Shown: positions 30,034 through 30,148 of the stretch, one piece after another | Layout: each line of letters starts with the position of its first letter | Position numbering within the stretch: the first letter of the stretch is position 1 | Assembly: GCA_005882335.1 (NCBI GenBank) | Contig: VBAP01000009.1 | Location: 48,303-112,302, forward strand | Length of the DNA stretch: 64,000 bases | From: Candidatus Segetimicrobium genomatis | GTDB taxonomy: Bacteria > Sysuimicrobiota > Sysuimicrobiia > Sysuimicrobiales > Kaftiobacteriaceae | Direction: 5' to 3' | Notes under the pieces: model-generated | What the model was told of the DNA's origin: nothing | Databases searched by the model: none | What the model saw: only the letters and a program-made list of their open reading frames with translations | Translations under genes and position numbers: made by a program

Positions 30034-30148
30034 GGTGATTAGTGATTCGTAAGTCGTGATTCGCCAGGAGGGTTGCGCGTCACAACGGCCGCTTCAGCGA
30101 TGCGAGCCGTCTGGAAATTCCGAGTCACGAATCACGAGTCACGAATCA
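30034..30148. repeat. ladder inverted repeat, heptamer family GTGATTC / GARTCAC
   Basis: Left arm GGTGATTA GTGATTC GTAAGTC GTGATTC (30034-30063) starts 1 nt after the gltX start codon. A 57-nt spacer follows. Right arm CGAGTCAC GAATCAC GAGTCAC GAATCAC (30121-30148) ends at the prs stop codon. Confidence 0.85.

Follow-up and report, generated by a model that had tools for sequence, protein, structure and literature searches.

Tandem-repeat hairpins behind stop codons in an uncultured soil bacterium: the prs-gltX spacer as a probable member of a lineage-specific family

The prs-gltX Spacer and the Family of Tandem-Repeat Hairpins

The spacer between prs and gltX (positions 30034-30148) in a stretch of 64,000 nucleotides (nt) from Candidatus Segetimicrobium genomatis (contig VBAP01000009.1; this whole stretch is termed the window) is on balance best explained as one tandem-repeat hairpin (TRH) of a lineage-specific family of REP/REPIN-like hairpins residing at the 3' ends of genes. 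A TRH is defined here as two inverted arrays of 3-6 tandem 7-, 8- or 9-nt units that enclose a loop of 15-90 nt. Such elements are highly structured and abundant, are anchored to stop codons and maintain their pairing across related genomes. The host is an uncultured member of the 'Bacillati bacterium ANGP1' / CSP1-3 lineage, labeled Armatimonadota at NCBI.

The element occupies the entire spacer from the gltX ATG (30033-30031, minus strand) to the prs stop codon (30151-30149) and is flanked by two minus-strand genes, gltX and prs (30149..31105). In mRNA sense, the prs TAG is followed by GTGATTC GTGACTC GTGATTC GTGACTC, 57-64 nt, the 3' arm, a single C and the ATG (Table 1). The two arrays are inverted to each other (24 nt, 92% complementary), TRF reports a period of 7, and the heptamer pattern occurs 11 times where 4.4 matches are expected, a count that none of 100 shuffles attained. 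For the spacer RNA a fold of -51.5 kcal/mol is predicted (z = -5.5). Its stem starts on the U of the prs stop codon, which thus lies within the stem, and stops 6 nt before the gltX ATG, while the repeat array stops 1 nt before it, in agreement with an initial annotation that had placed heptamer arms all over 30034-30148 and 1 nt off this start codon. The loop is conserved in part in the relative L010 and substituted in L004/L125 and L033. The Pfam class I E/Q synthetase catalytic domain begins at residue 7 of GltX and there is no alternative ATG, GTG or TTG from the in-frame upstream stop to 29955; the assignment of the start therefore holds.

Among the 12 strongest inverted repeats of the window, 8-9 have arms built of tandem units, and with weaker ones included the number of TRH rises to about 12-16. 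TRF detected arrays of period 7, 8 and 9, which corresponds to the tandem organization of long simple sequence repeats. The arms are 75-96% complementary, and predicted stabilities range from -44 to -96 kcal/mol with z values of -5.2 to -9.8, i.e., far better than shuffles. At least seven unit types occur, GTGATTC, AGTTGGAA / ACGTTGAA, GGAACCAG, GGGAACG, GTCTNCCCN, GGCGAACGA and GAACGCA, the latter in a 9-kb extension (L119). Within about 73 kb, i.e., part of the genome, several of these unit families are present in 2-5 copies, with many families in place of a single consensus. In an Rfam search of the window the only match was the tRNA at 24846-24916, and no TRH was matched at the gathering score. 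A further "element" at 54305-54498 was left out of the statistics because its arms lie inside the coding ends of cdd and era. The polarity of arms relative to transcription was discarded as a test since an inverted repeat is identical on both strands. An origin as MITE was rejected: loops vary in length and sequence within a unit family, a common core is missing, and inspection by eye revealed no consistent duplication at the flanks.

Position Relative to Stop Codons, Promoters and Terminators

Distances were read from coordinates over 20 distinct junctions in the window and its relatives. The upstream stop codon lies at -36 to +25 nt from the stem (median about 4) and in four cases falls inside stem or loop; from the stem to the next start, 4-283 nt are found. 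In 15-16 of the 20 junctions the stem lies closer to the stop than to the start (hand-done sign test, ~0.01-0.04), as it does in 10 of the 12 junctions with more than 30 nt of spare space. Given a short stop side and a variable start side, it is the end of the upstream gene that sets the position of TRH; the following start is touched only across a short gap. A TRH is carried by none of five divergent spacers vs. about 12 of 27 co-directional ones (at least 60 nt), a difference that is not significant.

At five junctions or more, the hairpin is succeeded by a promoter-like extended -10, namely TGCTATAAT (including TATAAT) at secA, TGTTATAGT at g39, TAGAAT at the S41 protease gene, TGATATAAT at ~56885 and TGCTATAAT before tRNAs in L119. 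The promoters of secA, g39 and the S41 protease gene are conserved in relatives without hairpins. At these sites, relatives devoid of TRH carry either no element or a small canonical terminator, e.g., a GC hairpin with TTTTT between the M23 and S41 genes in L123 and a weak hairpin with TTTTCTC between recO and g39 in L126. Canonical terminators are not enriched in the window (7 found vs. 8.8 expected) and none of them is a full TRH; one match of 7 pairs (37935-37952, plus strand) falls within the 5' arm of the hairpin downstream of secA. The short GC-rich stem and U-tract of an intrinsic terminator are not what TRH present.

Distribution and Evolution

High TRH frequencies are confined to this species and its closest relatives. 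Using one detector for all groups, densities of 164 TRH per Mb were obtained for the window lineage, 269 for the sister species (L004, L125, L128; 89-91% protein identity) and 85 for L010 / L033. The next relatives yielded 0 in 148 kb of syntenic sequence (by eye: two weak elements and one of low complexity), other CSP1-3 loci 10, 1 Mb from unrelated bacteria 13 and shuffled sequence ~0. The 1-Mb control consists of loci from a metagenome scan with SecA (at most 59% identity) and is unsuited to orthology.

Between the window and the sister species, orthologous hairpins show identities of 71-86% (91% in one case), with both copies predicted at -42 to -71 kcal/mol; pairing is thus kept through 14-29% sequence divergence. 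In the gltX element of L033, GTGAATC/GATTCAC stands for GTGATTC/GAATCAC of the window, a compensated change present in all units of both arms. This heptamer hairpin is found at gltX only in the window species, L004/L125, L010 and L033, and the L010 copy, with a decayed 5' arm of about two units, still has four in the start-proximal array. Other junctions differ more strongly. TRH between hpf and g33 and between livG and livF occur only in the sister species, the hairpin upstream of secA is complete only in the window (two remnant units in L125), and the sites between the DUF2231 gene and the response regulator as well as upstream of surE have different unit families in different genomes. The sister species carries 9-nt units GTCTNCTTR at four loci (L125, L128), three of which have window orthologues of other variants (GTCTNCCCN, GTCTACCAN or mixed), while the commonest 9-nt variant of the window, GTCTNCCCN, occupies three of five loci. 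Such parallel unit change suggests homogenisation between loci or re-seeding, as in REPINs. Contigs of the same species (L001-L003) show one single-nucleotide polymorphism and neither gain nor loss of units.

These data bear on the proposal that TRH are functionless by-products, either slippage-prone simple repeats or selfish DNA, tolerated just past stop codons. The narrow distribution, the gain, loss and replacement between sister species and the spill of arrays into coding ends (response-regulator and recO tails) would be expected from it, and among the long simple repeats of bacteria those of heptamers are the most common according to Mrazek (2007) as cited in PMC4679880. However, arm complementarity has been maintained through 14-29% divergence and unit changes, array length is not polymorphic among contigs of the same species, and the elements are tightly anchored to stop codons rather than randomly placed in long spacers, so that we consider this origin doubtful.

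Hairpins of related architecture were observed elsewhere. In the distant relative L127 (72% GC), an A/G-rich heptamer hairpin of AAAGGGA units (14607-14711) starts on the stop codon of the LNT gene with the prfB promoter TGTTACAAT directly after it; this architecture is thus not restricted to the TRH-rich clade. Unrelated metagenome contigs with SecA identities of 50-55% likewise contain clear TRH-type hairpins of heptamers or octamers (L070 5800-5870; L094 8281-8390, 14102-14255 and 16046-16135; L116 1646-1723; L080 1204-1314), three of them within 21 kb in L094. Other lineages may have TRH expansions of their own.

Translation Starts With and Without Repeats

Starts that lack a Shine-Dalgarno sequence (SD) are the norm in this organism, with or without repeat arms. 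Gene starts were assigned from open reading frames (ORFs), Pfam boundaries and homologues, and an SD was scored when at least 4 nt of AGGAGGTGA ended 3-13 nt before the start, SD-linked starts being preferred when choosing. Despite this SD-favoring choice, only about 21 of the 51 starts in the window have an SD. The initial annotation, which had attributed clear SDs to most genes and had singled out gltX, secA, surE and a histidine kinase gene as devoid of them, is not supported in this respect: by the 4-mer rule these four do lack an SD, as do about 30 of the 51 genes. Two additional SD-less genes, encoding a Macro protein (21532) and an HD-domain protein (43268), have a hairpin flush to the start. 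In about ten SD-less genes the start overlaps the upstream stop or is at most 16 nt away from it, ATGA overlaps or gaps of 4-7 nt are found at about ten junctions, and a -10-like hexamer stands at leaderless spacing at secA, prfB and possibly glnS. At least seven other TRH precede a normal SD or promoter and keep a distance of 15-205 nt to the start that follows; overall, half of the TRH are followed by an ordinary promoter and/or SD. The association between arms and missing SDs is largely geometric because an arm within 9 nt of a start occupies the position of the SD.

Starts without an SD have a longer history than the arms. In 13 relatives gltX is preceded by TTTGCG-N16-17-TGnTAC(C/G)CT, 6 nt from an ATG or GTG, i.e., by a leaderless-type promoter. 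In at least seven relatives the prs stop overlaps the gltX start (ATGA), and the gap between the two genes measures 6 nt in L121 and 11 nt in L123. Instead of the repeats at the kinase gene, L129 has TTGTGA-18-TATTGT, 6 nt from the ATG. The TATAAT of secA is found 9-10 nt before the ATG in identical context in the window (with a hairpin), L125 (with a remnant), L126 and L127 (with none). Because TRH-less relatives start gltX, the kinase gene and secA without a conventional SD, SD-less initiation predates the arms, and comparison with these genomes indicates that the start signals of secA, prfB, gltX and the kinase gene are independent of the repeats. For surE and the HD gene, some relatives have an SD (L124; L126) or a 6-nt gap (L123), so that at these two genes the element has displaced the SD instead of demonstrably taking over its function. 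In the window, gltX, surE, the HD gene and the kinase gene lack both a correctly spaced -10 and an overlap with the preceding gene, and repeats occupy the space. Leaderless promoters embedded in the arms at gltX, surE, HD and Macro were considered and rejected, as the hexamers ACTAAT, TAGTGC, TAGACG and TATCAT are wrongly spaced or lack key bases.

The prfB gene (RF2; 35701-35819, minus strand) provides a separate example. It contains the classic +1 programmed frameshift site, GGAGG-CAT-CTT-TGA-C, with CTTTGAC at 35750-35744. An extended -10 (TGATATGAT) ends 8 nt ahead of the ATG (35819) that opens its first ORF, and this layout of the leaderless type is retained in L125 and L126.

At secA, the ATG at 40629 agrees with the Pfam SecA_DEAD domain, which runs from residue 7, and with an identical 892-aa protein annotated by NCBI; the TATAAT hexamer had correctly been located 9 nt upstream. 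The hairpin in front of it begins 9 nt (array) or 18 nt (predicted stem) past the upstream stop and ends 43 nt before the ATG. The surE gene begins with the ATG at 20923 (MRVLITNDDG). The repeat arm in front of it stops 9-10 nt short of this codon, the stem 2 nt short of it when outer pairs are included, and the 5' arm lies within the final codons of the Macro gene (stop 20998-20996). In L121, L123 and L124, cutA1 is located between the Macro gene and surE; it is absent from the window (20924-20995), where the hairpin is found instead, and L122, without Macro and cutA1, has a different (GGAAACG) hairpin at the surE site. The two hairpins ahead of the Macro gene combine a pair of 16-nt direct repeats with subsequent GTGACCAG-type arms, and another hairpin fills the gap between a ppdK-like gene and the HD-domain gene.

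The kinase junction is of a different kind. Its heptamers form a single array without partner arm and without structure (z = +0.47), i.e., not a hairpin arm, that ends 4 nt before the ATG at 4185, from where the protein begins with MMRSIRWKLT, matching all homologues. The array is part of a 13-codon upstream ORF (uORF) whose ATG lies 1 nt past the stop (TAG) of the response-regulator gene and whose TGA overlaps the kinase ATG. Position, SD and ATGA overlap of this uORF had been described correctly before. The uORF and the overlap are kept in the sister species L128, where all five nucleotide changes alter the peptide; the peptide is not conserved and L129 has no uORF. An ORF running from upstream stop to downstream start and kept in relatives, as would be required of a coupling relay, is thus apparent from sequence for the kinase gene.

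It has to be weighed at this point whether the start-proximal array is a translation-initiation device for SD-less genes, acting as a standby or landing site, as a structure opened by ribosomes coming from upstream or as a small-ORF coupling relay. RRTCAC arrays of four units and the same orientation abut two unrelated SD-less ATGs (gltX, kinase), the unpaired and unstructured kinase array is kept together with the uORF in the sister species, and the start-proximal array of L010 keeps four units next to a partner of about two. Moreover, the arrays replaced leaderless-type promoters found there in relatives, stop and start lie 0-9 nt from the stem base in three flush cases, small ORFs cross the repeats from 1 nt past the upstream stop at the kinase gene and at livF of L128, and comparable roles have been claimed both for TAACTGA repeats (PMC4679880) and for MIRUs (PMC3184786, PMC7884335). 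Nevertheless, we regard such a device as unlikely. Most hairpins lie at a distance from the start that follows, with a normal SD or promoter in between, the initiation signals of secA do not change with the presence of the hairpin, and unit sequences differ completely among loci and thus offer no common sequence for recognition by the ribosome. The lack of peptide conservation and the geometric nature of the SD/arm association point in the same direction. Relay ORFs are present at the kinase gene, L128 livF and gltX and absent at Macro, SmpB, L125 gltX and HD; with four sites lacking them, a relay ORF across every flush hairpin is not a general rule.

The earlier view of these junctions consequently stands in part. 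The layout described for the four starts is confirmed, the secA arm being 43 nt away from its ATG and the kinase repeats forming an unpaired array. The assignment of arms to the initiation context agrees with the flush position at gltX, surE, Macro and HD and conflicts with the anchoring to stop codons and with the many SD-less starts that have no arms. Of the suggested leaderless or coupled initiation, the former fits secA, given its TATAAT in four genomes, and the latter is plausible for the kinase gene, with its uORF kept in the sister. A caveat about mis-assigned starts had been added; the starts of gltX and secA are backed by Pfam and by the identical NCBI protein, respectively.

Further Repeats and Leaders in the Window

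The remaining elements are listed in Table 1. The largest TRH lies 201-205 nt before the start of livK, for which a G-rich run (GGGGGA) resembles an SD. The 5' arm of the element at 49452 is short in the window and complete in L125, and that of the element at 49804 encodes the C-terminal tail of recO, with the recO stop in the loop. Where the DUF2231 gene adjoins the response regulator, a different hairpin, of 7-nt units, is found in the sister species. Arrays encode protein tails in the response regulator (4094-4145, 19 aa past the Pfam domain), recO (49888-49921) and the Macro gene (20996-21022), and an array at 54305-54350 possibly encodes the N-terminus of Era (start GTG 54350?).

Table 1. 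Coordinates of repeats, starts and associated features in the window.
Feature	Position	Strand	Remarks
prs-gltX hairpin, 5' arm (mRNA sense)	30121..30151	-	four heptamers GTGATTC/GTGACTC, overlaps prs stop TAG
prs-gltX hairpin, central loop region	30064..30120	-	
prs-gltX hairpin, 3' arm	30035..30063	-	heptamers GAATCAC GACTTAC GAATCAC TAATCAC
gltX (glutamyl-tRNA synthetase)	28540..30033	-	ATG 30033, no SD
secA leaderless-type start	40627..40644	-	TATAAT 40644-40639, 9 nt, ATG 40629-40627
8-nt-unit hairpin (AGTTGGAA type), between gene 40782..41435 and secA	40673..40772	-	z -9.8
9-nt-unit hairpin (GTCTTCCCA type), directly 3' of secA stop codon	37855..37950	-	
8-nt-unit hairpin (ACGTTGAA type), upstream of surE	20933..21022	-	
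Two hairpins, between HEAT-repeat gene stop (21648) and Macro ATG 21532	21542..21644	-	no SD
9-nt-unit hairpin (GTCTAC type), between ppdK-like stop (43397-43395) and HD-domain gene ATG 43268	43275..43388	-	no SD
Unpaired array at kinase gene	4153..4180	+	four heptamers GGGTCAC AAATCAC GAGTCGC GAGTCAC
13-codon uORF	4147..4188	+	GGAG 6 nt upstream; ATGA overlap with kinase ATG
Heptamer array, C-terminal tail of response regulator	4094..4123	+	GGAAACC/GGAAGCG
Largest TRH, 9-nt units	12896..13051	-	-96 kcal/mol; overlaps stop of gdhA-like gene, then TCTTTTG
9-nt-unit TRH (GGCGAACGA type)	17152..17248	-	between stop of M23-peptidase gene and conserved TAGAAT promoter of S41 protease gene
8-nt-unit TRH	49452..49513	-	past stop of small gene 49516..49770; then T5 run
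8-nt-unit TRH (GGGAACG type)	49804..49921	-	then TGTTATAGT promoter and SD
8-nt-unit TRH (GGAACCAG type)	56902..57017	-	5 nt past upstream stop; then TGATATAAT and SD-like AAGGT
8-nt-unit TRH	3330..3392	+	between DUF2231 gene and response regulator (start GTG 3408, SD GGAGG)
REP-like palindromes	14390-14430, 49330-49370, 59969-60018, 60074-60123, 61290-61330		

A second, conventional family of REP-like palindromes, CCTCACCCTT..CCCTCTCCCC-N4-GGGGAGAGGG, is represented by five copies, all just past stop codons, and a related copy exists in L121. The tRNA of the window is directly followed by a near-perfect hairpin of 19-21 bp (24846-24960 in total) that is not a TRH. In L119 (19500-20110), three similar hairpins in a row stand beside sequences that, judged by eye, resemble tRNA 3' ends, and a related hairpin is present in L122 (6666-6708). 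The livK leader (~12790-12885, minus strand) is conserved in L121, L122, L124 and L128 with the pattern GG(T/A)GCGGCGAACC..ATCC..CCCTG.A.GG; no Rfam family matches this leader, which might represent a regulatory RNA that has so far escaped recognition. The glyQ leader (49264-49450) contains a canonical terminator, GGGAGCCC..GGGCTTTTTT, and L126 (1658-2006) has a longer glyQ leader with a T-box-like GGTGGAACCACGG; in the window no Rfam T-box was matched at the gathering score.

Proposed Role and Its Weighing

As REP/REPIN-like elements at the ends of cistrons, TRH would protect or define transcript 3' ends, would partly insulate a gene from the next promoter and would have been spread or homogenised by some copying process. 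The missing SDs constitute a separate, older trait of a lineage in which leaderless-type promoters and stop/start coupling are probably in wide use. At junctions filled by a TRH (gltX, surE, Macro, HD), the downstream gene has to start at the foot of the hairpin, and the likeliest route would be re-initiation, in that a ribosome terminating at the stem base could melt the lower stem and expose the start. Stop and start are 0-9 nt from the stem base in three flush cases, and translational coupling at these junctions is possible judging from their layout.

Several points weigh against this explanation. All statements on function rest on position and conservation. Sense and antisense folds of 12 elements are equal, without the G-U asymmetry that would point to selection at the RNA level. 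No transposase occurs among about 20 window proteins scanned with Pfam, the rest of the genome lying outside that scan, and no copying enzyme was identified. A clear T-run (T4-T5) follows only two of about 15 hairpins (12896, 49452). Finally, a TRH sits inside the livG-livF operon junction of the sister L128, where the window has a gap of 4 nt, and gltX, surE and the HD gene have no room for promoters of their own.

The last points also concern the view that TRH are the intrinsic terminators of the organism, of a type without U-tract. It draws on the position after stops, the high stability, promoters directly downstream in at least five cases, canonical terminators at orthologous sites of L123 and L126, the small number of canonical terminators in the window and the T-runs after two elements, and is in our opinion improbable, as most elements have no T-run, stems of 25-45 bp are far above the length of terminator stems, and TRH occur in operon junctions (L128 livG-livF; prs-gltX; ppdK-HD) without space for a new promoter. 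Since a strong terminator between livG and livF would silence livF and promoter room is lacking at gltX, surE and HD, TRH are not simple or everywhere-strong terminators. The hairpin in question (L128 13505-13603, 9-nt units), which separates two ABC ATPase genes of a single operon, is flush on both sides, its equivalent in the window being the gap 7686-7689, and is crossed by a 36-codon ORF that begins 1 nt past the livG stop.

A bolder version of the REPIN-like explanation, in which TRH are an actively copied class targeting stop-proximal sites and the stem enables termination-reinitiation across spacers of 115-150 nt, appears very unlikely from the sequences at hand. If it were true, SD-less gltX, surE, HD and livF would stay translationally coupled, and the elements would be a bacterial counterpart of hairpin 'shunting'.

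Relation to Known Repeat Systems

The REP, BIME and REPIN elements of proteobacteria comprise hundreds of extragenic hairpins per genome that are located after stop codons and inside operons and have a species-specific consensus. REP sequences act in protection of mRNA 3' ends and in partial termination, and REPINs accompany a RAYT transposase. These elements (reviewed in PMC3184786) are the nearest functional models of TRH, and the way in which units of the sister species have changed in parallel at several loci resembles concerted REPIN evolution. On the other hand, REP arms are unique palindromes of 20-40 nt, whereas TRH arms consist of tandem short units.

The closest structural match is provided by the GGGAATC heptamers of Xanthomonas, which form two convergent arrays able to fold into a stem-loop, with 70-75 pairs per genome (Rehm et al., 2015, PMC4692102). 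These arrays are mostly intergenic, 0-50 bp from a stop codon and at times overlapping it, and their function is unknown; array length varies between related species, while the single or inverted-pair type is usually kept (PMC4692102). TRH share the paired arrays. The Xanthomonas unit, however, is a single G-rich one discussed as G-quadruplex forming, whereas TRH have at least seven unrelated units of 7, 8 and 9 nt, most of which (GTGATTC, AGTTGGAA, ACGTTGAA, GGAACCAG) are without a G3 tract. Dispersed elements of four and five heptamers have also been described for Geobacter (PMC2700814).

The unpaired kinase array is most similar to the TAACTGA direct repeats of marine Beggiatoaceae, which lie a few nt upstream of starts, in spacers with rare SDs, and for which a role in translation has been proposed (MacGregor, 2015, PMC4679880). 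They have one unit, nearly always lack a hairpin partner and are positioned by starts, TRH by stops. Mycobacterium MIRUs, as summarized in PMC3184786 and PMC7884335, reside inside polycistronic operons, first in senX3-regX3 (Supply et al., 1997), and contain small ORFs overlapping the flanking genes, with stabilisation of the upstream mRNA and control of downstream translation as proposed roles. They parallel the uORF between response regulator and kinase reported here, and in these accounts their units measure 40-100 bp, unlike 7-9-nt units or long hairpins. The -10 hexamer of leaderless mRNAs, 5-10 nt before the start, is conserved for secA and prfB and, in relatives, for gltX and the kinase gene.

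Significance

TRH differ from these systems in their many units and three unit lengths, their density, their strict anchoring to stop codons and their host lineage. Leaderless and coupled initiation account for the SD-less starts, which makes the main claim of the initial annotation real but ordinary; of greater interest is the repeat family behind it. In practical terms, arrays in coding ends can mislead the calling of starts and stops during annotation. A stem of -50 kcal/mol between a stop codon and an SD-less start offers a natural test of the reach of translational coupling. The compensated and concerted evolution of TRH within and between loci suggests a copying or homogenising mechanism that is undescribed for simple-repeat hairpins. 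In this uncultured soil phylum, about half of the genes apparently start without an SD, by leaderless-type promoters or coupling, and the intergenic space is dominated by an unusual family of hairpins that appears to stand in for ordinary terminators or REP elements.

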